Source of the DNA: a virus
Length of the DNA: 64,000 nt
Reading direction: 5' to 3' (one strand)
IMG/VR virus record: IMGVR_UViG_3300038436_000248
Coordinates: 8,854-72,853 of that record
Positions 878-23,646 of this stretch are shown piece after piece. Both the position numbers and the translations under genes were made by a program. The stretch's first letter is position 1. Each line of letters starts with the position of its first letter. Below the pieces are notes generated by a model, which saw nothing but the letters and a program-made list of their open reading frames with translations, was not told where the DNA came from and searched no databases.

Positions 878-1029
878 TACTGAGCTCCCTTTTTTGAATA
901 TTCAAGAACATCTTCAGAAAGTTCTTGTTACTGGTATAACTTGGTGCTTTTGCACCTGGAAGAAGCACAAGCACTAAGCCCTGATCATATGCCCATCGGG
1001 CTGTGGGTGTCATTTTAGAAACCTCTTCT

Positions 1030-2297: not shown

Positions 2298-2302
2298 TAC
2301 GT

Positions 2303-2716: not shown

Positions 2717-2723
2717 GTCAATT

Positions 2724-2735
2724 AGTATAGCATAG
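2724..2735 (-). promoter_or_regulatory. Extended -10 promoter CTATGCTATACT
   Basis: Same motif as at 4307 and 6015; TG-n-TATACT. Confidence 0.7.
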
Positions 2736-2759
2736 AATAGTAGAAAAGAAAAGGGAGGA

Positions 2760-3047: not shown

Positions 3048-3056
3048 TGCTCCTCC

Positions 3057-3254
3057 TCAGATAATTAGAAAACTAAAACTTGTTATTCCTGCAATGATAA
3101 GGGCAATTATACCCACAATCACACAGGTGATCACAGCAAAGATGAACAACCCGATCAGGGTGGTTACAATAAGCTGAACGAAAGCGATCAGCATGGCAAG
3201 TACTGCGCAAAACACATTGAATAGATTGACAGACGCTTCAACGAATTTCAACAT
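3057..3254 (-). CDS. Small membrane protein
   Basis: 65 aa, almost entirely hydrophobic; AAGGAG RBS. Confidence 0.7.
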   Translation of the reverse strand: MLKFVEASVNLFNVFCAVLAMLIAFVQLIVTTLIGLFIFAVITCVIVGIIALIIAGITSFSFLII

Positions 3255-3527
3255 GACTCTCCTTTTCTAGTGGACGTCCGTTTTTCTTCCCCAGAGGGGA
3301 GATAACGGTGTAATAACCAAGCCACTGCAACTGTAAGCCGTAAAAAGTAGGCTTATGAAGGTACTTCCAAAGACCATCAAGGTCAGTTACGTTTGCTATG
3401 ATGTACCCATCTTGAAGGTGGGTGACAAACTCATAGCGGTCATGCTTTTTGTAGACCTGAAACAAGAGGGGTCTCCACCTGTACCTGCGAAGGTACCGAT
3501 AAACACTCACGGTCTTTTTTTTGCCAT
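3238..3527 (-). CDS. Hypothetical protein whose SD-preceded ATG is out of frame across an A8 tract
   Basis: AAGGAACC-ATG-GC-A8-GACC reads MAKKRP-stop; one extra A gives MAKKKTVSVYRY... in the long frame. Confidence 0.5.
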
Positions 3528-3536
3528 GGTTCCTTC

Positions 3537-3770
3537 TTAGAACTCCCGCAAGCTCCATAGGAGATCCTCCCTTCCAACACCAAGATACTGCGCTGCAACT
3601 TTGTACATATGCCTGATGCGGAAGGGCCTGGTACTACTGGACTGCATTGTTCCTAGCGCCTCCCCTCCGTAGCATACAGCCCAGAGGGTATTATCGGCAC
3701 GAGTGAATACGCAGACCCTTCCCTTATTTGAAACTTGCACCTGATTACAATTGATCTGTTTCATCTCCAT
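3537..3770 (-). CDS. Hypothetical protein
   Basis: ORF in the co-oriented array; start chosen at MEMKQ. Confidence 0.55.
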   Translation of the reverse strand: MEMKQINCNQVQVSNKGRVCVFTRADNTLWAVCYGGEALGTMQSSSTRPFRIRHMYKVAAQYLGVGREDLLWSLREF

Positions 3771-3912
3771 TTGCAGGCACCTCTTCCAGGGATATTGAGA
3801 ACGGGCTTTCGCACTTCTCACATACCACTTCAATGATCAGCGGATCATTCAGGTTTAGATGCTTGCAAACTGGACACTCCCAGATGCCCAGCGCTTCCCG
3901 TAAACTGGACAT
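3745..3912 (-). CDS. Small zinc-ribbon protein (CPVC...CEKC)
   Basis: MSSLREALGIWECPVCK...CEKCES; TAATG coupling to the upstream gene. Confidence 0.65.
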   Translation of the reverse strand: MSSLREALGIWECPVCKHLNLNDPLIIEVVCEKCESPFSISLEEVPANGDETDQL

Positions 3913-4280
3913 TAGAACACCTCTGCGGGGAGGACATTCCCCAGAACCGGAAGGGTGGCCTCCTGCGTCTCGAGGGCTGATTGAATCAGGTTGGTCAGCT
4001 CGACAAGTTGGCGGGAGTTTCCCATTACCCAATCACGGTACTTGCTCATGTTCCCAACGGGCACCCAATGGTTGTTCCCAGGGGTCATGTCCAAGGCCCA
4101 GACCAGCATGCTTTCCCGCCCCTGGGTAACGTACATATTTACCACGCCATTCCCACGAGAGAGGAAGACCCCGTGAACTTTCCCGTCTTGATCAGTGACC
4201 TTACAAAGCCAGTGGGTCTCTGCGGGCCATTGGGTTTTTACTACCTGATGGGCCAGTTCAAGCCAATTGATCTCTTTCAT
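3912..4280 (-). CDS. Hypothetical protein
   Basis: 122 aa; AAGGAGG RBS; directly downstream of the promoter at 4307-4335. Confidence 0.75.
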   Translation of the reverse strand: MKEINWLELAHQVVKTQWPAETHWLCKVTDQDGKVHGVFLSRGNGVVNMYVTQGRESMLVWALDMTPGNNHWVPVGNMSKYRDWVMGNSRQLVELTNLIQSALETQEATLPVLGNVLPAEVF

Positions 4281-4306
4281 TGCGCCTCCTTATTTCAGCA
4301 TGAGTA

Positions 4307-4335
4307 AGTATAGCATAGAAACAAGATATTGACAA
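4307..4335 (-). promoter_or_regulatory. Sigma70-type promoter TTGTCA-N17-TATACT with extended -10
   Basis: Minus strand CTTGTCAATATCTTGTTTCTATGCTATACT. Confidence 0.85.
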
Positions 4336-4358
4336 GGCATAAAAACTACTTTACTTTC

Positions 4359-4841
4359 CTACTGGTTGAGCATGATGCTGTAGCCCTTCAGGTTGTGGGT
4401 CTTGCCCTGGGGGGTAATGTTATGCAGGTCAATGGAAACCTGATCTGCTTGCGTGTACTCCATGGCGGAGCAGGCATTCTCAAAGGCCAGCAGGGCCATT
4501 TGCAGCACCGCACGTTTGGAGGTTTTAGGTGTGCCCTTTGTTTCCTGGAGGGCAATTGTTGCCTGCTGATGAAGAAGCTCAATATCCCAATTGGGGAGGG
4601 ATACTTCTTTGGCCGTTTTCGGGAGGGTCACTTCAGTACTGGCGGAGTTGTTTTCTTTCAGCCATGGGTCAAGGCCCTGCACTTCGTAGATTTTGCAGAT
4701 AGCATCTTCAATGGCTTCAAACCCGTGAAGCAGGCCTTCCAGTTCCTCATTGGCAGGGGAGTTTGCGGCCAGCTCAGCCAGGGTATCTACAATTTCTACC
4801 ATTTGAGACAAAGAGGTGGTGATTTTCAGTGTTTTTACCAT
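4359..4841 (-). CDS. Hypothetical protein
   Basis: MVKTLKITT..., AAGGAG RBS. Confidence 0.7.
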   Translation of the reverse strand: MVKTLKITTSLSQMVEIVDTLAELAANSPANEELEGLLHGFEAIEDAICKIYEVQGLDPWLKENNSASTEVTLPKTAKEVSLPNWDIELLHQQATIALQETKGTPKTSKRAVLQMALLAFENACSAMEYTQADQVSIDLHNITPQGKTHNLKGYSIMLNQ

Positions 4842-4901
4842 AAGGGTCTCCTTTTGATTGTTTGGGTGCCGCCAAATCAGGGGCACAATGAGGTAAGTTG
4901 G

Positions 4902-4933
4902 GTACGTTGGTACAAATTGGGGCTTACGCCCCA
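4902..4933 (-). repeat. Outlying copy of the double-hairpin element
   Basis: Sense TGGGGC-GTAA-GCCCCA ATTT GTAC-CAAC-GTAC, intergenic. Confidence 0.6.
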
Positions 4934-4949
4934 GAGTCCACATTTGGAC

Positions 4950-5234
4950 TCAACCCCTGCGGAAGAGGCCCCACTTGCGGCGGGTAGTGCGTTTGCTTTC
5001 CTCTGCCCCGCCCAGATCGGCACCCTGTGCAACCCAGGTGTTGATGTCAGGCCAGAAAACAAGGCGTGGGGTACCATCTTCAATGACGATATTTACCACG
5101 TCCCCATTGGGTTCGTACCATTTCCCCAGGCCTTCGATCTTGATGCTGATCACATCGGGGTGGCAGGTGACGGTCACTTCTCGTTGTGTACTCATTTGGG
5201 CGTCTGACAGGATTGATTTGATTCTTTTAGTCAT
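4950..5234 (-). CDS. Hypothetical protein
   Basis: 94 aa; GAGGAGG RBS. Confidence 0.7.
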   Translation of the reverse strand: MTKRIKSILSDAQMSTQREVTVTCHPDVISIKIEGLGKWYEPNGDVVNIVIEDGTPRLVFWPDINTWVAQGADLGGAEESKRTTRRKWGLFRRG

Positions 5235-5565
5235 GGATGACCTCCTCTGATATATTGAAGTGTTGCAGCATGTTCTTGATGCTCTCCCGCATGTTTTTTT
5301 TGCGGGCCCACCGGGCTTTGAGCAGGGTTTTCAAAGAGCCGATTTGTTCAGGAGTCGGGGGATGTTCTCCGTGGCATATAGTGCCATCCACGGAGTAGAA
5401 CAGCCAGCCATTCTTCGCCAGAGTTTCCCAGCTTTCATAGTTGAGCTCTGTTCCAATTTCTCCCACGCCCTCAGCGTCATTCAGCCGATCTCCCGTATGA
5501 ATAACGTACCCATCGGGTTTGATCCAGCCCATGTGTACCATAGACCGTTTTGTTTTCTCTGTCAT
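5227..5565 (-). CDS. Hypothetical protein
   Basis: 112 aa; overlapping start/stop coupling. Confidence 0.7.
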   Translation of the reverse strand: MTEKTKRSMVHMGWIKPDGYVIHTGDRLNDAEGVGEIGTELNYESWETLAKNGWLFYSVDGTICHGEHPPTPEQIGSLKTLLKARWARKKNMRESIKNMLQHFNISEEVIHD

Positions 5566-5927
5566 TCGTGCACCTCATTTTCAAGTTCTTCAAGATAATC
5601 TTCAACATGCCACCGCAGCAATTCTGCTCGACGGGACACTGCCCAGGCTTTCTGTGCGGGTGTGTACTTCTCAAAGAGTTCAGGATCATTCTCTCTTGGG
5701 TCAAGGGTCAGGAAAAAGAGAAGTTCATAAACTGTCCTCTCGCTTGCGGGGTTGATATGGGGAGCAGGGCAGAACCGTTCACCCTCAAAGAGTAGTTGAT
5801 CCCCATCGAAGAGGCGATAAGCCAGCTCATGCTTACCATACTCATCCTGCTTGCCAGTTGCGTACAGACGTACTGTGTACTGCTCATGCTGCCACTCAAT
5901 AAGCGGCGTTTGGTCAAAGGCACTCAT
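5562..5927 (-). CDS. Hypothetical protein
   Basis: 121 aa; GGAGG RBS. Confidence 0.75.
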   Translation of the reverse strand: MSAFDQTPLIEWQHEQYTVRLYATGKQDEYGKHELAYRLFDGDQLLFEGERFCPAPHINPASERTVYELLFFLTLDPRENDPELFEKYTPAQKAWAVSRRAELLRWHVEDYLEELENEVHE

Positions 5928-6014
5928 TTGAACCTCCGTGAATAACGAGTTGGATTACAGGGTGCAAATGGAGATATTCAATTTGTAAGGTACGGTTTTC
6001 TCAATTGCTGAATA

Positions 6015-6042
6015 AGTATAGCATAGAAACTGTATTACACAA
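6015..6042 (-). promoter_or_regulatory. Sigma70-type promoter TTGTGT-N16-TATACT
   Basis: Shares GTTTCTATGCTATACTTA with the 4307 promoter. Confidence 0.75.
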
Positions 6043-6093
6043 GGGTAAAGATGTCACAATATTTGCATGACATAGATCACCCGAAATGGGGGC

Positions 6094-6348
6094 TTATTCT
6101 GCCCCCTGCCTGAAGTGCACGACGGCTTCTTGCTTGTGATCTTGAATCGCCTGCGTGCATGCGTTTTTGATCGCCTCTGCCATGGCATCCACGGACACAT
6201 CCAGAGTACCAGTACTGATGCTCACAAACCAGGGCATACCATCAGAGGGCAAGCACAGGACAAACATACCAGGGAGGAGGCTAAGTACAAGGGGTTCTTG
6301 ATGCCCTGCTTTCACTGCCGCTGCTTCAACTTGTTCTTTCTCAACCAT
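6094..6348 (-). CDS. Hypothetical protein
   Basis: 84 aa; GGAGG RBS; stop sits in the loop of a GGGGGC/GCCCCC hairpin followed by ATTT. Confidence 0.7.
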   Translation of the reverse strand: MVEKEQVEAAAVKAGHQEPLVLSLLPGMFVLCLPSDGMPWFVSISTGTLDVSVDAMAEAIKNACTQAIQDHKQEAVVHFRQGAE

Positions 6349-6356
6349 ATTTCCTC

Positions 6357-6671
6357 CTAGTATAAAAGCTCGCCCATAACGATAGACAGGTGATGTTCCG
6401 CCCCGATGATCAGCGCCCTTTCAATGTACTCTTTATACGCACCCACGGAAAAGGTCATGCCCTGGGTTTTGATAAGGATTGTTGTCGTTACCTGTGAAGG
6501 GGTAAGGCACACAGCAAAGATTTCCTTTCTCTCGGAGTAGTCCATACATACAACAGTGCAATCCTCTATGCCTGCCTGGGCGCAAGCGGACTCAATTTTA
6601 TTCCGTTCTACTGACGCATAGGTACATCCTGATCCCTGTGCTGCCCGATCTGCCTTTTCTAAAGTGCTCAT
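6357..6671 (-). CDS. Hypothetical protein
   Basis: 104 aa; AGGAGG RBS. Confidence 0.7.
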   Translation of the reverse strand: MSTLEKADRAAQGSGCTYASVERNKIESACAQAGIEDCTVVCMDYSERKEIFAVCLTPSQVTTTILIKTQGMTFSVGAYKEYIERALIIGAEHHLSIVMGELLY

Positions 6672-6707
6672 TGAAACCTCCTGATAGATAGTGGTACGAT
6701 TTTGTTT

Positions 6708-7151
6708 TCACCAATCAAGCAAAGCAGAGTTGCTCACCCGAAGGGCCCTATGGGATTGAAAAGTCCCTCCTCTTGAAACGCTGGTTTGGGTGAAGCTGAC
6801 CTGAAGAAAGACCCTCACGTCCCCTACTGGCCTGACAACATCCACAGTAAAGAGTGCTGTTTCATATTCCGCCTCATCCTCCGGAGGCATGTGATAAACG
6901 CACCCCCAGACCTCTTTTACCATATTCCGGTTTGCCCACTCCTCAAGCTGCTCACTTCCAGAGAGAAAAACCTGCACCTCAGAAGTAGGCAAGGGCATTA
7001 TCAAAGGCGCACCACCAAGTGGCTGCCTGATAGACTGCAAAGCCTGAATACGATACTGCACACTATCCGAGTAACGGACAAGGGCATAAAAGCCACGGCT
7101 CTCCTGGACAGGGCCAGTAATCGACTGAAGGGGAACAACCAGGTATTTCAT
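6708..7151 (-). CDS. Hypothetical protein, KYLxxP paralogue family
   Basis: MKYLVVPL...ALVRYSDSVQYRIQAL. Confidence 0.7.
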   Translation of the reverse strand: MKYLVVPLQSITGPVQESRGFYALVRYSDSVQYRIQALQSIRQPLGGAPLIMPLPTSEVQVFLSGSEQLEEWANRNMVKEVWGCVYHMPPEDEAEYETALFTVDVVRPVGDVRVFLQVSFTQTSVSRGGTFQSHRALRVSNSALLDW

Positions 7152-7158
7152 ACTACCC

Positions 7159-7566
7159 TCACCTTTCCATGATCCAGGAAGCGCCAATCGACATAACAGG
7201 GGGAGTATTGGCCCCAACTTTCACATACAAGAACAATTCACTCCCCTCTGTCGCCCCATTTCTGCACAAAGACACAGCATAAGGCACAGCTCTCTTCAAA
7301 CCCTTCCCCAACGCAGGGAGACGATCCACAACCCCCCAAGCATACTCATTCACAAACTCATCCACCAGCTCCTCCAAGCGACCACTCTTCCCCCAAACCA
7401 ACTCCACCTCATGGGAAAGCAAAAAAAGCCACAAAGAGGGATGCCTGAGACAACTTATATCCCGCAAAGCCCGTATACGCTGCTCCATAGCAGAGGAATA
7501 CCGCACAAAAGCACACGTAGGGACTGTGTCAAGGGTGCCAGGGAAGGGAACAATCAAGTATTTCAT
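7159..7566 (-). CDS. Hypothetical protein, KYLxxP paralogue family
   Basis: MKYLIVPF...AFVRYSSAMEQRIRAL; GGAGG RBS. Confidence 0.7.
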   Translation of the reverse strand: MKYLIVPFPGTLDTVPTCAFVRYSSAMEQRIRALRDISCLRHPSLWLFLLSHEVELVWGKSGRLEELVDEFVNEYAWGVVDRLPALGKGLKRAVPYAVSLCRNGATEGSELFLYVKVGANTPPVMSIGASWIMER

Positions 7567-7617
7567 AAGGATACCAAGCCTCCAAAGGGTATAGAATGTG
7601 ACCATAGGAATACTTAT

Positions 7618-7631
7618 TTTTCACGTGAAAA
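7618..7631. promoter_or_regulatory. parS-like palindrome TTTTCACGTGAAAA
   Basis: Perfect 14-bp palindrome, intergenic; core TTTCACGTGAAA shared with bacterial parS. Confidence 0.6.
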
Positions 7632-7772
7632 CAAATTCTGAATCCCTATGTTCGGGGGGGTTGAAAATTTGGGGCGGGGGGTGGTAAAAAGTACCTGTTT
7701 TGCCCGCTCGCCCAACAGTAAGGGCCCCCCTCAACCCCTCACCGTAGCATTTTCCCCTGGAATATCCCTCCC

Positions 7773-8186
7773 CTAGCCCATAGGCACACCCCCTCTCACG
7801 ATGTGCATTGCTGCGGGTGAGAAGAGCACCCCGCTTTCATTGGTGACCATGAGGGTCCAGAGGCCCTTTCCCTTACGCAGGCGCAGGGTAGCCAGTTTGG
7901 GGTGATCTGTGGCTTGTTCCTTGCAGGGGTTCTCCGGGCACAGCACCCATGCTTTACTGTTACCCGTGTACTGTTTTTGCAGGGCATCATACAGGGTGGG
8001 GTTGGTGCACAGGTGTACACTGGCTTCAGGGAATATGACTTCGGTGTCACCCTTGCTTACGCCCGCACGGATGGATTTGACGGCTTCTTTTGCGATCAGT
8101 CCTGACACCTCCTCTGTGTAGGGGATTACTGCGATGCGGTTCACGTTGGACACAGCGGAGCGGACGGGGAGGATTAGGTATTGCAT
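7773..8186 (-). CDS. Hypothetical protein, KYLxxP paralogue family
   Basis: MQYLILPV...IAVIPYTEEV; AGGAG RBS. Confidence 0.7.
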   Translation of the reverse strand: MQYLILPVRSAVSNVNRIAVIPYTEEVSGLIAKEAVKSIRAGVSKGDTEVIFPEASVHLCTNPTLYDALQKQYTGNSKAWVLCPENPCKEQATDHPKLATLRLRKGKGLWTLMVTNESGVLFSPAAMHIVRGGVPMG

Positions 8187-8196
8187 AGGTCTCCTC

Positions 8197-8640
8197 TTAT
8201 TGGATGTCAGGGAGTTTGACAGGGACGGTGGGCAGCTCTTCCAGGCGGAAGTTGGTGGAGGAGAAGGCGATCCCTTCCCATGTCACCTCTACCAGCAGGT
8301 AGTCATTGGGGGTGTAGGCGATCATAACCTGGTCAAAGCGTACGTCAAAGTAACGATCACGGAAGATGTCCCGTTCGCACAGGAAGGCGGGCTCTCGAAA
8401 CTCCTGACGAATGCCCGGGACGTAACAAGGGTGGTAGACTCCCGGATAGAACTCAAGCAGCCCTTCTACTTCTTCATTCTTTACCCATCGGGTGAAGGGG
8501 GCGCCCCACTTGCCCTCTGTGCCCAACCGTTCAAAGGCTGCTTTTACACCCTGGGTGAGGGGGATGCGTGCGTAGGCACTTCTTATGTCCCCTTTAGGTT
8601 CAGGGGAGCGGTATGTCATGTGGAGGATAATACTATGCAT
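8197..8640 (-). CDS. Hypothetical protein
   Basis: 147 aa; AAGGA RBS; coupled to the upstream gene. Confidence 0.7.
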   Translation of the reverse strand: MHSIILHMTYRSPEPKGDIRSAYARIPLTQGVKAAFERLGTEGKWGAPFTRWVKNEEVEGLLEFYPGVYHPCYVPGIRQEFREPAFLCERDIFRDRYFDVRFDQVMIAYTPNDYLLVEVTWEGIAFSSTNFRLEELPTVPVKLPDIQ

Positions 8641-9070
8641 GGTGTCCTTCCTTTCTTGGGTAAACTTTCAGGCCTTGCGATTCCCGTGGGGGCATGTAGA
8701 CATCATCCAGGGTGAAGGCGTGGCTGGTGAGGAACTCCCCATTTGCCAGTACGGTTATGGTGCTTTCAGCCTGGGCTTGCGTGCCGTCTATTTCAAGGAT
8801 GACCCGATCTGGCCTGACTGCTTCCAGCTCTGATAGGGGGGAGTAGTTTGGTGTGACCACGCCGAACCTGTTCAGTAGGGGTATCCAGACGGGTTGGCAG
8901 TTGCGCTTTTCGATGATGATGTCCTTGTAAAAGAAGGCAGTGCCTGCTTTCAGTTCTACTTTGGTGCGGCGCTTCCGTGAGGACAACATGCTTTCCGCTA
9001 TTTCAGGGATGAGGCGGGCCGCTATATAGCAGCCCTCTCTCCCTTGCACGCCGATTGTAAAGGTGGGCAT
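8633..9070 (-). CDS. Hypothetical protein
   Basis: 145 aa; GAGG RBS. Confidence 0.7.
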   Translation of the reverse strand: MPTFTIGVQGREGCYIAARLIPEIAESMLSSRKRRTKVELKAGTAFFYKDIIIEKRNCQPVWIPLLNRFGVVTPNYSPLSELEAVRPDRVILEIDGTQAQAESTITVLANGEFLTSHAFTLDDVYMPPRESQGLKVYPRKEGHHA

Positions 9071-14368: not shown

Positions 14369-14602
14369 TTACTCCTCCTCACATTCGGGGGCGTTGTCAT
14401 CGGCAAGAAGATCAATTCCTGTCAGGGTGTACAGATCCTGCCACTCTGCACCACAGTCCCTGCAGGCAATGTCCTGCCATGCGCTCATGCCGTCCGCCTG
14501 CACGAAGTCGATTGAACTGATGTTTGTGGAGCCACATTTTGGGCAGGCATTTCCGTTATGCCCTTTGTAGGTATCCCATAATTCTTGATTTGTTTTTGGC
14601 AT
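14369..14602 (-). CDS. Zinc-ribbon protein
   Basis: CPKCGS...CRDCGAEW; GAAAGGA RBS. Confidence 0.75.
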   Translation of the reverse strand: MPKTNQELWDTYKGHNGNACPKCGSTNISSIDFVQADGMSAWQDIACRDCGAEWQDLYTLTGIDLLADDNAPECEEE

Positions 14603-14661
14603 TTCCAATTCCTTTCGAGTCCAGCCACCGGATTGTGGCAAATGGGGCTTGCGCCCCTGCT

Positions 14662-15792
14662 CTATGCAACTTCCATCAACTCCTCTTCCTCATCTTCTTC
14701 ACACTCCCAGGGTTCTTCTTCCAGCACGTCAGGCTGTTCCAGGAGCTCATCTGCATCGAAGGTGTTGAGGTGGGCCTTCGCCTTGCGGGTCTCTTCAAGA
14801 TGATCCGTTCTCCACAGGTCTGCCTGAAAGCGACAGTCCCAGCAACCACTCCCATCCTCTCGCTGGCGGAAGAACTCCTTGGTGACCTCGGCCAGGAAGA
14901 TCGGGGAGTCATCCACAGTGCCAAACTCACACCAGCTCCCACGCCCACACACATCCATGAGCCGTCCATCTGGCAGATAGGTCAGGAAAGTTACCCCACC
15001 AGAGCCCTTGCTCCCACTGTCGGACATAGTGGAAACACCCACGCCACGTCCATTCGGTGCGATTCCTGATGTGTTGGTATAGAAAGGTTCCACATGTATC
15101 CAGGGGTCGCTTGAGTCTGGGGGAGGGGCATAGACCGTGTCCTCATCGGGGAACTCATACTCCCCATCTACACCGCAATCTTCACAGTAGCCATCAGGGA
15201 GCTTCTCTCCACATTCAGGGCATACACAGACCTCCTCATCAAACAGCGTTCCATCTTCCCATATCCCTTCAAGAGCTGTGTGGAGCTTGTCCCCTTGTCC
15301 GGTTGCGTAGTAGGGGATAGCCGCCCCTGTCAGGTAGTGCGGGCGGAACTCATTATGATAGGGGTCATTGGAGATACGCACAGAGATCCGATCACCAGTC
15401 TCCATGCACTCGCTTCTTCCGCTTTCCTCTACATAGGGCGCCATGATTTCCATAAAGCGCTTGGTGGCATCAGAGTCTGCCAGCCACCATCCATTGGTGG
15501 TCATCTCGAGGTCAACAGGCCAGTGACCCACAATGTTCAGGACATGTGCAAACTTTTCCATGTCCATTGTTGGCTCCCCACCAATCAGGTTTATTATCAC
15601 CTTTATTTCCAGGTCTTGAAGCAGGTCTACCTGCTGCTTTACTTTGTATAGCATATCATCCCCCATATAAACAGGGTCGCTCTTTGGCGAGCATTCATAC
15701 ATGCAGTGCCGACAGGCAAACGTGCAGGCTTCTGTCAACAGCAGGCTGATGGTCACACCATCTTCTTTGTACTTCTCAAGATGCACAGTCAT
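14662..15792 (-). CDS. Radical SAM protein with internal zinc-ribbon insertion
   Basis: CTFACRHC CxxxCxxC, LIGGEPT, TTNG, ISNDPYH; insert CPECGEKLPDGYCEDCG; GGAGG RBS before MTVHLEK. Confidence 0.88.
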   Translation of the reverse strand: MTVHLEKYKEDGVTISLLLTEACTFACRHCMYECSPKSDPVYMGDDMLYKVKQQVDLLQDLEIKVIINLIGGEPTMDMEKFAHVLNIVGHWPVDLEMTTNGWWLADSDATKRFMEIMAPYVEESGRSECMETGDRISVRISNDPYHNEFRPHYLTGAAIPYYATGQGDKLHTALEGIWEDGTLFDEEVCVCPECGEKLPDGYCEDCGVDGEYEFPDEDTVYAPPPDSSDPWIHVEPFYTNTSGIAPNGRGVGVSTMSDSGSKGSGGVTFLTYLPDGRLMDVCGRGSWCEFGTVDDSPIFLAEVTKEFFRQREDGSGCWDCRFQADLWRTDHLEETRKAKAHLNTFDADELLEQPDVLEEEPWECEEDEEEELMEVA

Positions 15793-15853
15793 GGGATACC
15801 TCCGTGTAATAAACGCTCCCGGATTGGAGCAAATCGGGGCCGAAGCCCCTGTG

Positions 15854-16420
15854 TTACACTGCTTGTGGTGCCCATTGCAGATCAGTGCGGATGACAGCAT
15901 CCATCAGGTATCCCTTGTTGAGCTTCGCCAGGCTGCAGGACACTCTTACGCCACCATCCACTTCCTGGGCAAGGCGGACATGGAAGGGCTTCTTACTCTC
16001 CACGTAGAAGAGTTTCACGGTACGCCCACTGTTGAAGGTGATCTCTTCAGGGAGTTCGATGAACGCTCCCTTCTTGACCTTCCCCCAATTCTCCGCCAGC
16101 CTGCGGTTGTCCTCCCGCCATTTGATAGCATGCGGGTACTCGGTAGGCGTGAGCTTGTCCAGGATGGATAGGGGACAGCCATACACATATGGACCAGACG
16201 ATTCGTCCATGTCCTTGAACGTGAGGTTGAAACCATCCCGGTTATTTGGTGTCCATTTGAGCATCACCACCAGGGCGAACACCGTACCGTCTGGCTTGCG
16301 CAGAGCCGCAAAGTACTTGTTGCGCTCAAGGTGGTCCTCAACCACTTCATACGGGCGTGCAAGCCCTCGCATGATCCGACGGCACTCCCCTTTACCGCAG
16401 CGCATTCCAGTCCAACCCAT
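15854..16420 (-). CDS. Conserved phage/MGE protein (DUF6927-like)
   Basis: MGWT start; FKDMDESSGPYVYGCPLSILDKLTPT...A..WR motif. Confidence 0.7.
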   Translation of the reverse strand: MGWTGMRCGKGECRRIMRGLARPYEVVEDHLERNKYFAALRKPDGTVFALVVMLKWTPNNRDGFNLTFKDMDESSGPYVYGCPLSILDKLTPTEYPHAIKWREDNRRLAENWGKVKKGAFIELPEEITFNSGRTVKLFYVESKKPFHVRLAQEVDGGVRVSCSLAKLNKGYLMDAVIRTDLQWAPQAV

Positions 16421-16803
16421 TAGTTCACCTCCGTTGGGTATCCCATATCCAGGGCGTCTTGATAGTACGGTGCGTAATGCCCTTTCTTGCGTTCTGTCTC
16501 AACAGCCTCTGCAAAGCCCTTGTACCCAAGCTCCAGGGCACGCTTTGCATTTGCGATGGCCTCTGCACGGACACGGCCTCTGTGCATCATATATCCCGTT
16601 TTGGCTTCAGTGATAATCCAATCCCCGGGAAGGCCAGACGGGGTAACATCCCTGCGAATGTGCGCATCCACAAACTCAAACCCAGGGATAACCACCTTGC
16701 TTGCGTTGCATGGGGTGAAGATTGCCCCGTTCACAACCTCAGACCCTTCCGGCGCAGGGCGCTCTGGATTATGCCGGGTGTAGTACCTTGCGTTTGCAGC
16801 CAT
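16420..16803 (-). CDS. Hypothetical protein
   Basis: MAANARYY...; GGAGG RBS; TAATG coupling. Confidence 0.7.
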   Translation of the reverse strand: MAANARYYTRHNPERPAPEGSEVVNGAIFTPCNASKVVIPGFEFVDAHIRRDVTPSGLPGDWIITEAKTGYMMHRGRVRAEAIANAKRALELGYKGFAEAVETERKKGHYAPYYQDALDMGYPTEVN

Positions 16804-16804
16804 C

Positions 16805-17107
16805 TTATTTTGCCTCCTGAGCGATTTCTTGTGCCCATTCCTCAGCTTCTGCACGAGCCCTGTTTAGGGTTGCGAATGAGCCACGACTATTGACGGTCAC
16901 AATGCCGTCCGAGAAAACACGGCGTACCTTGTACAAGCGCTTGCCGTGCGGCGGTTTGATGCTGTGAATAAAGAGTGCCCCACCATCCGGCAGGTTCCAG
17001 AGATCCGGATAGGTGATGTCTTTGAAGGCCCTGACCGCACCCTTGGAGAAGAAGTGGTGCCCAATCTTCTCATTCGCTTCTTTGATCTGCTCAACACTGT
17101 AGAACAT
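16805..17107 (-). CDS. Conserved phage hypothetical protein
   Basis: IKEANEKIGHHFFSKGAVRAF motif; GGAGG RBS. Confidence 0.75.
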   Translation of the reverse strand: MFYSVEQIKEANEKIGHHFFSKGAVRAFKDITYPDLWNLPDGGALFIHSIKPPHGKRLYKVRRVFSDGIVTVNSRGSFATLNRARAEAEEWAQEIAQEAK

Positions 17108-17166
17108 AGCAACCTCCATAAACTAGACGCTCCCGGATTGGAGCAAATAGGGGCCAGAGCCCCTGT

Positions 17167-17565
17167 TCATCCCAGAACTCTCCTCTTCTCAGGAGGGATG
17201 TAGTCTGGATGATCTTTGTACCTGGGGCAATATCCAGATGTTTCCAGCCATCCACGCAGTTCCTCCTGTACTTGTTTTGGGTGTGCAGTGATTTCATTGA
17301 GCACTCTTTGAACAGCCTGCTCTTTTGTTTCTCCATTCATTATGAGGTACCCTGTGCGCCCGTCGTATATTCGCCACAGGCACCCATAGGGGGAAGGAGT
17401 GGCCCACATATCATCAAACTGCTCGTATCCCTCAAGGACAACAGGCTCCCCGTTGGGTTCATGTACGAACATGGGCTCTCCATCTTTGTCCCTGATGTAC
17501 TCAACGTCCCATAGTGGGCTCTTCCGCTCACTCCACAGTACCCTGCGGTAATAACCTTCTGGCAT
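17167..17565 (-). CDS. Hypothetical protein
   Basis: MPEGYYRR...; AAGGAG RBS; bounded by hairpin elements on both sides. Confidence 0.75.
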   Translation of the reverse strand: MPEGYYRRVLWSERKSPLWDVEYIRDKDGEPMFVHEPNGEPVVLEGYEQFDDMWATPSPYGCLWRIYDGRTGYLIMNGETKEQAVQRVLNEITAHPKQVQEELRGWLETSGYCPRYKDHPDYIPPEKRRVLG

Positions 17566-17626
17566 AATTGCACTCCTTTTGTGTAGGGCTCCCGGATTGG
17601 AGCAAATCGGGGCCGAAGCCCCTTGG

Positions 17627-18031
17627 TTAGATGTACCCAAGTTTCTCTGCAACATCCTTCATGCTGTCCCAGAACAGATCCATGTAGGCGTCCTCCATTT
17701 CCTGTGCCATGTCATAAAGCTGATGGATGGTCGGCTTGAAGCCCAGGTGGCGTTCAACATCCTCAACGGACATGGCGGCGATATACATTGAACTTGCGGA
17801 GACCTGATTGGATTTCCAGGGGCCTACATAGTGTCCCTGGGCAATGTCGTTGAAGTTGTAACGAACTTCCTTGAAGTACGCACGGGACAGTGCTCCTGCA
17901 AGGCTCTCACATTGCTCCTCAAACAGGCTATCCACGAAGCCCTGGTTCTCAAGAACACACACGACGGGGGCTTGCTCCCATTTCTCACCAAACTGACGTG
18001 CTTTGAAGGTTGCTTTCTCGAAGGTAGGCAT
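17627..18031 (-). CDS. Hypothetical protein
   Basis: 134 aa; bounded by hairpin elements on both sides. Confidence 0.75.
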   Translation of the reverse strand: MPTFEKATFKARQFGEKWEQAPVVCVLENQGFVDSLFEEQCESLAGALSRAYFKEVRYNFNDIAQGHYVGPWKSNQVSASSMYIAAMSVEDVERHLGFKPTIHQLYDMAQEMEDAYMDLFWDSMKDVAEKLGYI

Positions 18032-18094
18032 TTCATTGTCCTTTCATTTGCAGCCACCGAATTGTGGCAAATGGCGGGATATACCCGCCAGGAT

Positions 18095-18457
18095 TTAGCT
18101 TTCACTTGGGAGGTGTAGCACCCAATATTCCCCCGATTGCCCTACCCAGATGTCAATGTCCCCGGGGATGTCCGTGAACTCGATCTTCTGGGATGTCAGG
18201 GGCCGGTAGTTCCCATCCTCACAGGTCAGCACAGCCCCACCTTCAGGAAGCTTTCGTAACTTCCAGACCTGGAAGGGCTCGTTGCGCAGCTTCTTGGCAT
18301 AGGATGCGATGGCGTCCATCAGCCAAAAGGCCTTGTATGTCTCAGCTGCGTACTTTGCCCCGTCCGTGAGCAGGTGGGTGGGATACAGTTGAGGGCTCCA
18401 GCGGTGATACGCCTCAGTCCCATAGAAGCCTTCCATTGAGTCGTTGAGTAAAGCCAT
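18095..18457 (-). CDS. Conserved protein (DUF6876-like)
   Basis: FYGTEAYHR...LTDGAKYAAE..KAFWLMDAIAS...FQVWKL motif. Confidence 0.75.
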   Translation of the reverse strand: MALLNDSMEGFYGTEAYHRWSPQLYPTHLLTDGAKYAAETYKAFWLMDAIASYAKKLRNEPFQVWKLRKLPEGGAVLTCEDGNYRPLTSQKIEFTDIPGDIDIWVGQSGEYWVLHLPSES

Positions 18458-18469
18458 GGTGATCCTCCT

Positions 18470-18688
18470 TTATTCCGCTTCAGTGATTTCGATGATCCGC
18501 CCCAGCGAGTCATCCTCAATAAGAACAGGCAAGTCACGTGCGCTGCCGTACACTTCCAGACCATCGTCGAGATACTCCTCGATCAGATCTTCCACAGTCT
18601 CCCGTGCTTCCCGAAGACTGTCACACTCAATCACGGTGTCCGCCAGGTACCCACCCTGTATCCCGTCAGTGACAATAAAGAGTGCCAT
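18470..18688 (-). CDS. Small acidic hypothetical protein
   Basis: 72 aa; GAAAGGAG RBS. Confidence 0.75.
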   Translation of the reverse strand: MALFIVTDGIQGGYLADTVIECDSLREARETVEDLIEEYLDDGLEVYGSARDLPVLIEDDSLGRIIEITEAE

Positions 18689-18754
18689 TTGAAGCTCCTT
18701 TCAGTAGTAAAACGGGCCCATCCATGGGCAAATAGGGGGCCAGAGCCCCCTGCA

Positions 18755-19108
18755 TTACTGTGCTGCCCTCACCATGTCAGCAGCTTCGATTGGAACGTAG
18801 GCGTTGATCTCTGCTGCATCCGCCTTGCGCACCAGCTCCTGACAGAACTTGACCGCCCACTCATTGCGGGCGTCATAGTGATTGCCACTCTCGGCTGCGT
18901 ACCAGAACAGCACGGACACCAGGAACTTGATGACCTCTTGCTGCAGGTAACGGTGCTGATACTTCAAGGCCTTGGCTGTTTCACGGGCCTTCAAGCGGTT
19001 GATGTTCGCCATGTCTCCAAGTAGCTCGCCCATAAACTCTGGCGTGACCTCTTTCCGTAGGTCATAAGCAGAGATGGCAGCATCATTGACGGTGATTGTT
19101 TTAGGCAT
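18755..19108 (-). CDS. Hypothetical protein
   Basis: MPKTITV...; GAAAGGAG RBS. Confidence 0.75.
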   Translation of the reverse strand: MPKTITVNDAAISAYDLRKEVTPEFMGELLGDMANINRLKARETAKALKYQHRYLQQEVIKFLVSVLFWYAAESGNHYDARNEWAVKFCQELVRKADAAEINAYVPIEAADMVRAAQ

Positions 19109-19155
19109 AGTGAAGCTCCTTTCAGGAGTAAAGAAGGTGCCCATCCGTGGGCAAA

Positions 19156-19509
19156 TCAGGGGCATGTAGCCCCTGTCCTGGATTCGATGACCCCCATGGT
19201 CAGGTCATATACACGGCGCAGGAAGTCCCTTTCCTGTATCGGCAGGAAGTAGTCTTCCTTGTAGGCCACGTCGAAGACACGAGCGTCCGGGCACTCATCA
19301 GGAGCAAAGACACCATGGCATGCCCAGCACTCTTCATTGTCCTGGCCGATCAGGACAGCGCCACAGTGTGGGCATTCTGTGAGGAGACCCGTCACCATCA
19401 CGGTGTTCTCAAGGTCTGAAACGAAGCCAATGGTCTCGATCTTGGCGGGGTTTGAACCATCCAGGTTCTCCAGGAAGCTCTTGGTTGAAGGGCGGATGTC
19501 AGTTTTCAT
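19156..19509 (-). CDS. Hypothetical protein with internal double zinc ribbon
   Basis: MKTDIRP...CPHCG...CWACHG; stop lies in the ATTT linker of a hairpin element. Confidence 0.7.
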   Translation of the reverse strand: MKTDIRPSTKSFLENLDGSNPAKIETIGFVSDLENTVMVTGLLTECPHCGAVLIGQDNEECWACHGVFAPDECPDARVFDVAYKEDYFLPIQERDFLRRVYDLTMGVIESRTGATCP

Positions 19510-19516
19510 GTGAAAA
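19503..19516. promoter_or_regulatory. parS-like site, one mismatch, overlapping a start codon
   Basis: AGTTTTCATGTGAAAAGT at 19501-19518. Confidence 0.45.
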
Positions 19517-19582
19517 GTTCCTTTCGGGAATGGTAGATAGGGATGTCCACATTTGGACAAATCGGGGGCAATGCCCCCTTGA

Positions 19583-19903
19583 TCAGTCAAACATCGTGCC
19601 AAAGCGCTGATTGTGAGCCTTCAGGCGGTCAGGGGTGATAGAGAACATGATCTCATTCACACGATCCACGAAGTCCTGGCTGCGCTTCTTTGAGCAGATC
19701 CCTGTAGGATCCACGTGCCGATCTTTTATTTCCCAATCCACCAGATGGGCAAGCCGTGCGTGGACCTGAGCGTACTCCATCAGGCTGTAGGAGTGGCCGT
19801 AATCATGCTCGGCGTACTCGACTTCAGGGAAGTGACCAGCCAGGAGGATCTCCCGCAGTTTTGCTTTTGTGGCGGTGTGAACGATCTTGTTTGTTTTAGG
19901 CAT
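19583..19903 (-). CDS. Hypothetical protein
   Basis: 106 aa; GAAAGGAG RBS. Confidence 0.75.
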   Translation of the reverse strand: MPKTNKIVHTATKAKLREILLAGHFPEVEYAEHDYGHSYSLMEYAQVHARLAHLVDWEIKDRHVDPTGICSKKRSQDFVDRVNEIMFSITPDRLKAHNQRFGTMFD

Positions 19904-19974
19904 AGCAATCTCCTTTCAAGAGACAAAGCGGTCTGTGCCCATCCGTGGGCAAATCGGGGGCATTGCCCCCTTGT

Positions 19975-20490
19975 CTAATCCATGTGGGTCCAGACACTCA
20001 TCTGGAAGCCCGCATCCCGAAAGACCTTGGCGAACGCTTCCGCAAAGGCCTGGTTCAGATCGTAGGATTGTCTGGCCGTACCATCCAGGCCAGCTTCTTC
20101 CGGGTGCCACGTAACACCCCGTGCGACTCCCCCGTAGTAGTGCTTGGAGAACTCATGGAACTTCGCAGCCCATTTAGCCAGGCTCGAATTGCCGGGGGTG
20201 ATGACCAGGGCGGCGTACCCGCAGGGGCCGTGCTTCACGACCTCTATCAGGCCCCTGTCAGGATCCACAACACCCATTGGGGTGCAGACGGTGTTCTTGA
20301 TGGCCTCAATCCCTGCGTTGTGAGCTTCCGCCCATAGCTTTGCAAACTGACTGTACCGATCTTCTCTCTCGGCAGCCTGATCGGCAATCATCTGCTTCCA
20401 GGCCTCACGTGCGGCCTTGCGATGCTCCTTGCAGTAGGAGCTACCCTTATGAGTCGGGTTTGAACATCCGTTATATTTGCAGGTAGTCAT
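19975..20490 (-). CDS. Conserved phage hypothetical protein with N-terminal Cys motif
   Basis: CKYNGC...YCKEH; GPCGYAALVI.PG...SYDLNQAFAEAFAKVF; GGAGG RBS. Confidence 0.75.
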   Translation of the reverse strand: MTTCKYNGCSNPTHKGSSYCKEHRKAAREAWKQMIADQAAEREDRYSQFAKLWAEAHNAGIEAIKNTVCTPMGVVDPDRGLIEVVKHGPCGYAALVITPGNSSLAKWAAKFHEFSKHYYGGVARGVTWHPEEAGLDGTARQSYDLNQAFAEAFAKVFRDAGFQMSVWTHMD

Positions 20491-20552
20491 GCGTTCCTCC
20501 GTATGGTTGATAGAGTTGGATTATACCACGCTGTATAAGTATAGCGTAAAAA

Positions 20553-21143
20553 CTAGAACAGGGGAAGCTGTTCTATGGATGTTCTGGCGAACACCCGTGT
20601 CCTTGCGGCCATCCATGTAACCGCCTGGATTTGATGGGGCATAAGCCCTGTGACCTCGGATGCTTCCAGGTACCCATCTGCGATCTCGTTGTATCGCTTA
20701 CCTGCCAGGGTGCCGGGGTTGACACTGAGGTCTCCCATGGCAATACGTGCTGCCCATACATCGACAGTCACCGCCTTGGAACTGTCAGGCCGCAGGATGT
20801 TATCCCAGAAGGACGTCACCTTGACCCCGCTCAGCACATCCAGATGGCCTGCAGCGATCTGAAAGGCCTTGAGCTTGTTCGTGCCATAAGTGGCAACCTT
20901 GATGCTGTTCGGGTGGATCCCGACCTTATGGGCACGCAGCACCGTCAAGGTGTCCGACAGATTGCGTTCCCACTTATTGCGTGGGCTCAATACTGCCAGG
21001 ACACCTGCCACGTTCTCGAGCGGCAGCATCAACTCAGTCGCCCAGGTGCGGCACCAGTTGTGCGCTTGCTGGTACCACGTCATCCCCGCCTGGCGGTCCA
21101 TGCCATCTGCACGGGTGAACAGGGCCATAATGTTCTCAAGCAT
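20553..21143 (-). CDS. Conserved phage protein (DUF7178-like; possible HhH-GPD-related fold)
   Basis: WY..A...AGVLAVLSPRNKWERN...KVTSFWDNI...VTVDVWAAR...QIQAVTW. Confidence 0.7.
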   Translation of the reverse strand: MLENIMALFTRADGMDRQAGMTWYQQAHNWCRTWATELMLPLENVAGVLAVLSPRNKWERNLSDTLTVLRAHKVGIHPNSIKVATYGTNKLKAFQIAAGHLDVLSGVKVTSFWDNILRPDSSKAVTVDVWAARIAMGDLSVNPGTLAGKRYNEIADGYLEASEVTGLMPHQIQAVTWMAARTRVFARTSIEQLPLF

Positions 21144-21203
21144 ACGTACCTCCGAAGAAAGTCACCGCCGAATTGCGGCAAATCAGGGGCATATGCCCCT
21201 GTC

Positions 21204-21566
21204 CTACTCAGTGAACGTTGTCCACGCCTTGAACAGGTCTTTATAGTTCACGGTGGCGGAGGGGTATGCCTCCGACTTCAGGAGTGCCCCGTGGCTGTAG
21301 AACGTCACGGAACAACCATAGGTGGCACGCCCATCTCCGAACGGGCAATCTTGCGTGACCAGGCCACGATCCTCCGGGATGCCCAACCCTGGGACGTAAT
21401 TCCTGACCACACACCCCTCAATTTGAGGGATGCACACAATATGTGGGGACCTCTTGACCAATCCCGCAAGCTCAATCATCTGGGCCAGGGTGCCCCTGTC
21501 AACTGCAAGGGTGTAAAGGAAGCTCACGCCATGCTGATTAGACTCAGATACGACAGTAATAAACAT
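21204..21566 (-). CDS. Hypothetical protein
   Basis: MFITVVS...; GGAGG RBS; bounded by hairpin elements. Confidence 0.7.
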   Translation of the reverse strand: MFITVVSESNQHGVSFLYTLAVDRGTLAQMIELAGLVKRSPHIVCIPQIEGCVVRNYVPGLGIPEDRGLVTQDCPFGDGRATYGCSVTFYSHGALLKSEAYPSATVNYKDLFKAWTTFTE

Positions 21567-21625
21567 ATGCACCTCCAAGGAAGAGTGCCACCGGATTGTG
21601 GCAAATAGGGGCATGCGCCCCTGTC

Positions 21626-21877
21626 TTATGCGTTCACCGTGAGGAAGTCTTCAAGGTGAAGGTTCTCGATTACCTGCCATGCAGGCACGTGGGCAATCAT
21701 CCCACTCTGGGATCTCACCAGGCCATCAGAATTGATCCAGCGTTCCGGGTCATCCTCATTTACGGCCTCAATCGCCTTTTTAGCAACGCCCATCCACTCG
21801 GGCATCGGGGGGTAGACGTTATGCTGCAGGTGATTCGTAAGAGCCACATGAAACCGAATTGCAGTTGCTCCAGTCAT
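21626..21877 (-). CDS. Hypothetical protein
   Basis: MTGATAIRF...; AAGGAG RBS; bounded by hairpin elements. Confidence 0.7.
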   Translation of the reverse strand: MTGATAIRFHVALTNHLQHNVYPPMPEWMGVAKKAIEAVNEDDPERWINSDGLVRSQSGMIAHVPAWQVIENLHLEDFLTVNA

Positions 21878-21923
21878 TTTCAACTCCTTTTGAAACGCCA
21901 CCGGATTGCGGCAAATGGGGGGC

Positions 21924-22106
21924 TTATCGCCCCTTGTGATACTCAACCATGGCGTCCCAGGCGTCACTCCATGAAGCATGGGGCCCAGAAACCATATCCC
22001 ATGACCCACGGCCATGCAGTGCGTCATTCCCTGGGGTCTCTGATACAATCGCGTACTCATCATTCCGATGTAGCACATAGAACTCAACATGTGTTTCTTC
22101 AGGCAT
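21924..22106 (-). CDS. Small hypothetical protein
   Basis: MPEETHVEF..., 60 aa; GAGGA RBS. Confidence 0.7.
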   Translation of the reverse strand: MPEETHVEFYVLHRNDEYAIVSETPGNDALHGRGSWDMVSGPHASWSDAWDAMVEYHKGR

Positions 22107-22467: not shown

Positions 22468-22695
22468 TTATTTGGACAGAATGCCCTGGACCACGTCCAG
22501 GTTTTGGCCGCCATTCATGCGGCCTACGACTGCAGTGGCACCATCAACCACTGCACCATTGACGGCACTTGATGCACCGTCGGAAGCCCCATCAAGGAGC
22601 TGGTTAGCTTCGTTTTCCATGCGCTCACCAAAGACCCCCAAGGCCGCCAGAATAATAATGACGGCAATCAAGAACAGCAAACCCAAGACTTTCAT
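22468..22695 (-). CDS. Small protein with N-terminal signal/TM helix
   Basis: MKVLGLLFLIAVIIILAALGVFG; GAAAGGA RBS. Confidence 0.7.
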   Translation of the reverse strand: MKVLGLLFLIAVIIILAALGVFGERMENEANQLLDGASDGASSAVNGAVVDGATAVVGRMNGGQNLDVVQGILSK

Positions 22696-22739
22696 CACAG
22701 ATCCTTTCTGAACAAGCTTGCCGGATTGCAAGCTTCAAA

Positions 22740-23260
22740 AATGCCCAAGCTACGCACTTGGGCACTTGTGAAGCCCCCGCAAGCGCAACCTTGCGGGTCT
22801 GATATGATTCCCCGGTCTCGTTCACCCCTTGACCAGGGTCGGTTTGTGCAATCGCACTGCACACAAGGGCTCTCATTATCTCTGGCCCCCGAAGGGGCAG
22901 CCACTGGCTCCGGCTCTTTTGGACAGCTCTCGGCTCCCCGGCGGTTTGCCCGCCAGGCCCGTGCCCTAAGATGACCGCTCCAGGCATCACCCGTTGTTTG
23001 ATTTCCCAGTTTGTTCATCTGGGGGGGTATCGCAGACCAGTTCCACGCTTTCCGCTCCGATTCCGTTACCGCTGGCGCTGCTCCCGTGTATGGCACTACC
23101 GTTCTCACATTACCCTCAGACTTCGAACCACTCGCCCGCTTAGGGCACACCTAAGCCGCCCCCCACCTACCGGATTCTCTAGTCCTACTCTATTCCTGAG
23201 TAAGGCCTTGCCAATTTTTAAAGTTCAGGTACTACCCAATAGGCCGTCCTTGGCCGCCCG
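22740..23260 (-). ncRNA. Candidate large structured non-coding RNA (about 500 nt)
   Basis: No credible ORF; many GC-rich hairpins, e.g. CCCC-TTCG-GGGG, CCCGCAAG/CTTGCGGG, GCTTAG/CTAAGC, GTGC-GATT-GCAC; ends in TGCCCAAG/CTTGGGCA-TTTTT. Confidence 0.5.
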
Positions 23261-23262
23261 GA

Positions 23263-23646
23263 CTACTTGCGTCCGCCGGGATTCTTCAAATTCGAGACCT
23301 TGATCAGGCCTTGGTACGTGACCACCCGCCCGCCCTTGCGATAGGTCACCCGCCCGGAAACCACGTTCACAAACAGGTGTCCAAAAGCTTCATTCGCACG
23401 GGCGTTGTAGCCCTCGCTGGCGTCCAGCTCCAGCTCTATCGGGTCAATCTGAAGCCACTTGGGCACCCGGCGCCCGTCCTTGTCAAGGGCTTTGCAATAG
23501 CCCTCAATTATCAGGACGTGAGTCCGCTCGGGCTTGGGCTTGGCGGGGGCGAGACTGCGAAACTCGCCCGTGTTGCCCAATTCCTTTGCTTCCCGGCGCC
23601 GGGCGGCGAGATCTGCCGCTTGACGCAATTTGCCCTCTTTACTCAT
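23263..23646 (-). CDS. First gene of the early array, basic hypothetical protein
   Basis: MSKEGKLRQ...; GAGG RBS. Confidence 0.7.
   Translation of the reverse strand: MSKEGKLRQAADLAARRREAKELGNTGEFRSLAPAKPKPERTHVLIIEGYCKALDKDGRRVPKWLQIDPIELELDASEGYNARANEAFGHLFVNVVSGRVTYRKGGRVVTYQGLIKVSNLKNPGGRK

Follow-up and report, generated by a model that had tools for sequence, protein, structure and literature searches.

A structured RNA between the first two genes of a phage early operon and its possible role in transcription elongation

A gap of 567 nt (22696-23262) separates the first two genes of a phage early operon, which raises the question of what this DNA is for: does it encode a protein, a structured RNA or a signal in the DNA itself? 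The window, by which we mean the whole stretch of 64,000 nt analysed here, belongs to an IMG/VR provirus record of 85.7 kb. On its minus strand, an ORF for a protein of 127 aa, ending at 23263, is followed by the gap, by a 75-aa ORF starting at 22695 (the two ends from which the bounds of the gap follow) and by a long array of small genes. Genes for ParB and a family-A DNA polymerase (DNA polymerase A) lie on the same strand as this early array, beyond the start of the window, and since the direction of transcription does not change up to them, the leftward unit is longer than 30 kb. A tyrosine integrase at the opposite end of the record marks the phage as temperate. The flanks of the record (positions 1-8853 and 72854-85676) are still phage, with a GH25 lysozyme as well as the tyrosine integrase at one end, and neither host genes nor tRNAs were found in them despite the provirus label.

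Relatives of the locus and its coding potential

Relatives of the flanking proteins were found in three further lineages only (L044-L049, L050-L053 and L054), all of them metagenome assemblies, in which the 127-aa protein is 76%, 75% and 58% identical, respectively. The gap is kept at the same place in all four lineages, with 567 nt in the window and 568, 570 or 612 nt in the others, and in every lineage the 127-aa gene stands directly upstream of the RNA described below. Neither queries with the 127-aa, the 106-aa and the DUF7178 proteins against 5.8 billion proteins nor a profile search of 1.84 billion representative proteins led beyond these lineages; IMG/VR protein and pattern scans gave no further homologues, no match emerged from a blastn search of 50,697 phage records, and no DNA resembling the RNA was seen at 42 distant DUF7178 loci. 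Scans of metagenomes and genomes with a loose pattern yielded chance matches only, none of them confirmed by nhmmer. The sequencing runs listed as containing part of the window comprise four DNA runs from one hydrocarbon-metagenome study and no RNA run. All known members of the phage clade come from environmental metagenomes, hydrocarbon-associated ones among them.

The frame-specific difference in GC content, which amounts to 0.3-0.4 in the flanking genes, is 0.02-0.12 across 23260-22780. Between the window and L050, substitutions in the gap are spread flatly over the codon positions of a 151-aa frame (32/32/36), compared with 11/9/46 in the 106-aa gene and 16/8/36 in the 75-aa gene. Only the window and L044 have a long sense frame, which in L044 exceeds the 151 codons of the window, the longest frames in L050 and L054 having 107 and 82 codons; the indels in the gap have lengths that are not multiples of three, and Pfam holds no match for the 151-aa frame. 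The absence of frame-specific GC, the flat substitutions and the breaking of the frame in L050 and L054 bear out the earlier suggestion, made from the sequence alone, that the gap is non-coding; instead of a frame at 22695-23150 kept with a synonymous pattern of substitution, the homologues conserve structure. It should also be noted that, in some contigs with an identical sequence, public gene calls exist in this region, namely a 227-aa sense ORF in L046 (941-1624), which fuses the L044-type frame to the 75-aa gene, and a 77-aa antisense ORF within the RNA region of L044 (5673-5906); both are most likely false calls in GC-rich non-coding RNA.

Nucleotide identity between the window and L050 is 81.7% in the gap and 73.7-79.4% in the neighbouring genes, and between the window and L054 it is 48% and 45-65%, so that the gap diverges at about the same rate as its neighbours. 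The near-identity of the gap in the window and L044 is uninformative, because both phages are 95-100% identical almost everywhere. Across ~4 kb this range is left only in two patches of 72-81% identity, one at 23550-23250, which takes up two-thirds of the 127-aa gene on its C-terminal side and in which L044 stands nearer to L050, and one at 22855-22560, comprising the 3' hairpins of the RNA and the gene of the 75-aa membrane protein; both have the appearance of mosaic exchange or of diversifying patches.

Conserved structure on the operon sense strand

Three covariance models of at most 176 columns, one for each domain (R1, R2 and R3), were built from the window, L044 and L050, and L054 was held out as a test. 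An alignment fitted to a model is biased towards the structure of that model, but the controls, shuffles and helices with slid partners, argue for a real signal. MAFFT realignment misplaced the 5' part of L054. Fold stability reached z = -2.45 on the minus strand, where none of 100 shuffles was as stable, and z = -1.78 on the plus strand. The hairpin-rich, structured nature of the region was confirmed, the strongest evidence being helices that the relatives keep through compensatory changes: homologue search and covariation together support about 17 helices, with about 34 base pairs changed on both sides, from the sequences of the four lineages.

For the central domain, model R1 detects L054 with 42.5 bits (E 5.6e-07); in the four-lineage alignment 94.6% of the cells are paired and nine pairs are doubly changed, values that none of 500 shuffles reaches, and controls with the partner moved by 1-3 columns retain 30-55% paired cells and 0-2 doubly changed pairs. 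The model of the 3' domain, R2 (22734-22907), finds L054 with 77.3 bits (E 1.2e-21), and here 98.9% of the cells are paired and 12 pairs doubly changed (0/500 shuffles; 0-1 doubly changed pairs in the slid controls). The 5' domain of L054 was matched by R3 only in part; doubly changed pairs make up six of seven in P2 and three of four in h3, and P5 is found in all lineages with differing sequences (GCAG-C-GCCAG/CUGGU-CUGC, GCAA-A-CCCCG/CGGGG-UUGC and CUAG-UAA-GCGA/UCGC-CUGG). Paired positions hold 37 G·U cells and a single A·C cell, an asymmetry which indicates that the structure is read on the minus strand, i.e. the sense strand of the operon. We are highly confident that the gap has been selected as an RNA structure. 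A transcript with the polarity of the operon would be a large multi-domain RNA with a core of ~450 nt (23185-22735) and conserved upstream elements reaching to 23262 (Table 1).

Table 1. Features of the locus in the window (minus-strand features read from high to low coordinates)
Feature	Position	Strand	Remarks
First gene of leftward operon, 127-aa protein	23263..23643	-	ORF list
Conserved upstream segment	23186..23262	-	Alignment A1, promoter scan, hairpin check
Motif GUAGUACCUGAAC	23235-23223	-	Conserved upstream segment
boxA-like CUUUAAAAA	23223-23215	-	CUUUAACAA in L044, CCUUAACAA in L054
Promoter-like TTGGCA-16-TAGAGT	23214-23187	-	Consensus promoter scan
13-nt box GGAAUAGAGUAGG	23196-23184	-	Invariant in 4/4 lineages
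5' domain	23027..23185	-	Model R3, alignment A10, helix table of all lineages
Hairpin P2	23156-23150/23144-23138	-	5' domain; compensated in L054
Single-stranded block CUGAGGGUAAUG	23119-23108	-	5' domain; invariant or nearly so
Hairpin h3	23096-23086	-	5' domain; compensated in L054
Helix P5	23081-23072/23040-23032	-	Encloses GC-NGAAA-GC hairpin 23055-23047
Central domain	22908..23026	-	Model R1, alignment A7
Hairpin D	23023-23005	-	Central domain, which also holds conserved linker GGGAAAUCAAACAA
Hairpin Pq	22993-22981	-	Central domain; enlarged in L054 by 34-nt insert
Long irregular stem b1-b4	22977-22959 with 22933-22911	-	Central domain; hairpin F as cap
Hairpin F, CCUGGCGG-GCAAA-CCGCCGGG	22957-22937	-	GCAAA loop
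3' domain	22772..22907	-	Model R2, alignment A9; includes variable hairpins
UUCG hairpin GCCCC-UUCG-GGGGC	22898-22885	-	Variable hairpin of 3' domain
Junction-closing helix AGCCC/GGGCU	22871-22867 with 22776-22772	-	Carries c2, c3, c4
Hairpin c2	22863-22845	-	3' domain; missing in L054
Hairpin c3	22838-22810	-	3' domain; conserved 13-nt loop
Hairpin c4	22796-22777	-	3' domain; linker AAUCAUAUCAGA between c3 and c4
Terminal hairpin	22735..22771	-	15-16 bp, U run, terminator-like; helix 6 of A9
Second hairpin AAGCUUGC-AAUCCG-GCAAGCUU	22714..22735	-	Directly after terminal hairpin
Second gene, 75-aa hydrophobic membrane protein	22468..22695	-	RBS 22708-22703

The UUCG-capped and the GCAA-containing hairpin noted at the first inspection were both recovered. 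Outside the supported helices, several blocks are invariant or nearly so: CUGAGGGUAAUG, GGGAAAUCAAACAA, the c3 loop, the linker CAUAU and the NGAAA and GCAAA loops. The variable parts, such as the extra hairpin of 34 nt on Pq in L054, where c2 is absent, resemble expansion segments. The loop of c3 (22830-22818) reads A(A/C)GGGG(U/G)(G/C)AA(C/U)GA, and its AGGGG word is common to the 5' arms of the intergenic GGGGC hairpins of the operon; judged by its letters, it could in principle compete for the CCCC 3' arms of these hairpins.

Some further pairings were dropped, as they are unsupported in L054: a long-range helix of 10 bp between 23148-23139 and 22970-22961, a helix of a G run and a C run closing the 5' domain, a pseudoknot of the c3 loop with the C run 5' of hairpin D and an ACG/CGU helix which RNAalifold placed around the NGAAA hairpin. 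The same holds for pairing of CUGAGGGUAAUG with CCUCAG, a word present only in L054 and without support there.

The conserved segment of 77 nt between the stop of the 127-aa gene and the core contains two motifs that each occur once in the window. Its promoter-like site is found in three lineages (TTGGCA, TCGACA or TTGACA, then 16 nt and TAGAGT); the -35 hexamer is absent in L054. The invariant box GGAAUAGAGUAGG can be read in two ways, as the -10 region of this promoter or as the loop and 3' arm of a possible 7-bp hairpin (23204-23198 with 23190-23184). The E. coli rrn boxA with its spacer reads ugcucuuuaacaauuua (PMC2724277), and CUUUAA(A/C)AA corresponds to its 3' half and spacer, the GCUC half being missing, as measured against the E. 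coli sequence, from which the host's boxA may differ. A possible hairpin with the loop AGGAAUA lies 8-10 nt 3' of CUUUAA(A/C)AA.

Hairpin elements, transcription signals and the upstream protein

The terminal hairpin of the RNA has 15 pairs in the alignment of the 3' domain, 98.3% of them paired across lineages and two compensated, and its tail reads UUUUUG in the window, UUUCUUG in L050 and UUUGUG in L054, the U run being paired with an A-rich 5' arm. A U-tailed hairpin directly followed by the longest AAUCCG hairpin, as the sequence-only reading described it, is indeed present at this place; however, the consensus terminator scan did not call the terminal hairpin, the U run of which is short. 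The arms of the AAUCCG hairpin covary (GCUCAC/GUGAGC in L044, GCUCGU/GCGAGC in L054). Together, the two hairpins form a double-hairpin element, of which theirs is the first copy and also the longest. The element consists of a GGGGC-loop-GCCCC hairpin, (N)AUUUG and then a second hairpin, and a regular-expression search found it after at least 14 downstream genes on the minus strand (window 14600-22000 and 4900). The same elements occur in L044, L050 and L054; their second hairpins carry the loop AAUCCG, ACGGAU or AAAUGU on covarying arms. With tails of no more than AUUUG, the intergenic hairpins may terminate weakly, or may instead be signals of RNA stability or processing.

In the consensus scan, no terminator-like site was called on the minus strand from the stop of the 127-aa gene to the RNA, and no promoter-like site from the RNA to the 75-aa gene. 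With no such promoter 3' of the RNA, the downstream genes depend on read-through. Within the downstream array there are 14 promoter-like sites against 13.4 expected from shuffles, and as they do not exceed chance, expression of the array needs passage of the terminal hairpin of the RNA and then of the later elements. A further promoter-like site (23779-23751) precedes the 127-aa gene, and just 5' of it lies a terminator-like hairpin, GGGGACGGCGUCCC with a U run at 23808-23794 (minus strand), which is kept in L044 and L050 and may insulate the early operon. A low-GC cassette with an EcoRI-type methyltransferase and a GmrSD-HNH nuclease, oriented divergently from the early promoter, also occurs at the same place in L044 (2250-4303) and L050 (2202-4264), so that it cannot be a recent insertion confined to this phage.

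The 127-aa protein is modelled by AlphaFold2 with a pLDDT of 70 as a basic N-terminal helix (residues 3-23) and a six-strand beta domain, the strands of which run from residue 43 onward. It matches no Pfam family (E up to 0.01) and no PHROG, and neither PF17362 (ConAn1) nor an N family was found; Foldseek against the PDB gave nothing below E 0.18 and thus no fold match, ESM Atlas gave only leads scoring below 0.85, and tblastn against 72,556 plasmids gave no match. When the window is compared with L044, the RNA shows 97-100% identity, against strong divergence in the C-terminal part of the protein, so that protein and RNA do not co-vary tightly.

Elongation control and its alternatives

Against Rfam 15, which includes GOLLD, ROOL, OLE, riboswitches, introns, RNase P and tmRNA, the whole window gave no match at the gathering thresholds, and relaxing the threshold to E up to 10 brought up only chance fragments of 10-14 bits in the window, L050 and L054; ARAGORN called no tRNA or tmRNA at the RNA locus. 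As no lineage examined matches a known family, GOLLD and ROOL included, the RNA represents a new one. GOLLD and ROOL are large ornate RNAs associated with phages (PMC12286853, PMC5737381). The present RNA resembles them in its several hundred nucleotides, its many helices, its association with a phage and its lack of an assigned function, but it lies within an operon between genes rather than near tRNA genes, is confined to four lineages and matches neither covariance model.

Three groups of known systems invite comparison with regard to the position of the RNA. In conAn of pLS20, a bipartite antitermination system of conjugative plasmids, a non-coding RNA region of ~300-380 nt lies directly behind the small gene that opens a very long operon; the RNA (conAn2) antiterminates in cis only, the upstream protein ConAn1 provides processivity, the operon contains several terminators, and GC-rich single-stranded parts as well as stem-loops are essential in the RNA (PMC8191782). 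The locus shares this arrangement in having the 567-nt gap after the first gene, an operon of more than 30 kb and at least 14 elements of GC hairpin and AUUUG as putative terminators; it differs in that the 127-aa protein lacks the ConAn1 domain (PF17362), in belonging to a phage and not to a Gram-positive plasmid, and in an RNA that is larger and far more elaborately paired. With the cro-nutR-tR1 region of lambda it has in common the order of first gene, RNA site, terminator (here a terminator-like hairpin) and rest of the early operon, and with N/Nus an upstream protein beginning with a basic helix, a boxA-like 3' half and a hairpin 8-10 nt further on. However, the boxA of lambdoid nut sites (CGCUCUUA or UGCUCUUUA) is represented only by CUUUAA(A/C)AA, allowing for a host boxA that may differ, the loop AGGAAUA is no GAAAA-type or GNRA-like boxB, the protein has no match to N, and the element is 10-15 times as long as nut. 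The put RNA of HK022 and the Bacillus EAR are cis-acting structured RNAs at the head of operons which render the polymerase resistant to terminators (PMC9378689; PMC8191782). A structured RNA at the operon head is found here too, and action in cis is proposed by analogy; no similarity in sequence or structure was seen, and the present RNA is much larger. Put consists of two stem-loops of ~70 nt in total, and EAR measures ~120 nt. To our knowledge, put, EAR and conAn2 are the few RNA-based systems of elongation control known up to now, and the large ornate phage RNAs are still without a function.

The sequence-only reading had proposed either a large ncRNA or an antiterminator or leader, and the conserved structure, the ~17 compensated helices and the status as a new family support that proposal. 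Given what precedes the RNA (no terminator-like site), what follows it (no promoter) and its ending in the first double-hairpin copy, the sequence context leans to a leader or antiterminator. Because the conAn-like arrangement combines a small first gene, a large RNA and an operon studded with hairpins, we favour, tentatively and short of thinking it probable, a cis-acting control of elongation, possibly exerted with the 127-aa protein and analogous to conAn, put and nut without being a member of any of them. The RNA would act in cis, on the transcription complex from which it has just emerged; the polymerase would thereby pass the terminal hairpin of the RNA itself and then the terminator-like double hairpins after nearly every gene of the leftward operon of more than 30 kb. 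This would amount to processive antitermination or control of read-through, with the 127-aa protein as a possible cofactor. Action on elongation, action in cis and participation of the protein are all three what we infer; the fixed position of the RNA, its placement on the sense strand and the 3' end which it has in common with the repeated double-hairpin element are observed.

Several points speak against elongation control. The ~450 nt and 17 helices far exceed put and EAR, and the RNA looks more like a free-standing ornate RNA; the terminal hairpin was not called by the terminator scan, and AUUUG tails are weak for terminators; the promoter-like site and the terminal hairpin would define an independent gene; and the protein has no family match and does not co-vary tightly with the RNA. 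A more specific version, namely that the locus embodies a new class of RNA-based processive antiterminator of ~450 nt, working alone or with the unrelated 127-aa protein as an independent phage counterpart of conAn, appears to us rather doubtful.

The main rival, possible albeit less likely in our view, is a free-standing gene for a large ncRNA acting in trans, which would start at the promoter-like site (23214-23187), end at the terminal hairpin (22771-22735) and be made early or in the lysogen; its product would have a target in host or phage, e.g. in host takeover or counter-defence, or would assemble with itself like GOLLD and ROOL, which are likewise phage-associated (PMC12286853, PMC5737381). 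Ornate RNAs typically have such a size and such a number of helices, contacts in trans could be made by the long conserved single-stranded blocks and loops, and the long terminal hairpin with its U run would define the 3' end. The promoter-like site, present in three lineages with its -10 hexamer inside the 13-nt box that is invariant in all four, lacks its -35 hexamer in L054, however, and as no terminator-like site was called after the upstream gene, the RNA would at least also be part of the operon transcript. Efficient termination at the hairpin would moreover leave the next genes without a promoter, and Rfam shows no match to the known ornate RNAs. A free-standing ncRNA from which read-through feeds the operon and elongation control are not mutually exclusive.

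RNA-based immunity is known from satellite phage P4 and from P1 c4, where a piece of a leader pairs with complementary boxes. A leader of this kind, from which a processed piece would bring about premature termination in the lysogen, would suit a temperate phage with an integrase and no evident repressor-like gene beside the early promoter. In the window, GUGCCCUAAG (23148-23139) is complementary to CUUAGGGCAC (22970-22961) at 10/10 positions, and the terminal hairpin has the related GUGCCCAAG as its 5' arm. This long-range complementarity weakens in L050 and L054, however, and the competing local helices P2 and b3 are kept by compensation, which makes an immunity or attenuation leader improbable.

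A DNA-level element, be it a replication origin, a packaging site or an operator array, is more improbable still: the locus is near the strand-switch region and the motifs conserved in the 77 nt upstream fit no supported helix, but neither iterons nor repeats were found, and compensatory pairing and the 37:1 asymmetry of G·U over A·C are meaningful only for a single-stranded minus-strand transcript. A protein-coding gene or decayed pseudogene in the 22695-23150 frame, suggested by 151 open codons in the window, a longer frame in L044 and the joined 227-aa call in L046, is refuted by a frame broken in L050 and L054, flat substitutions, non-triplet indels, no Pfam match and no frame-specific GC.

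If the RNA were indeed a new class of antiterminator, host polymerase would be reprogrammed to pass more than a dozen hairpin elements over more than 30 kb. Clear covariation and a fixed position make the function of large phage RNAs directly testable at this locus. In this phage clade the RNA would be a conserved regulatory checkpoint through which transcription enters the early operon.
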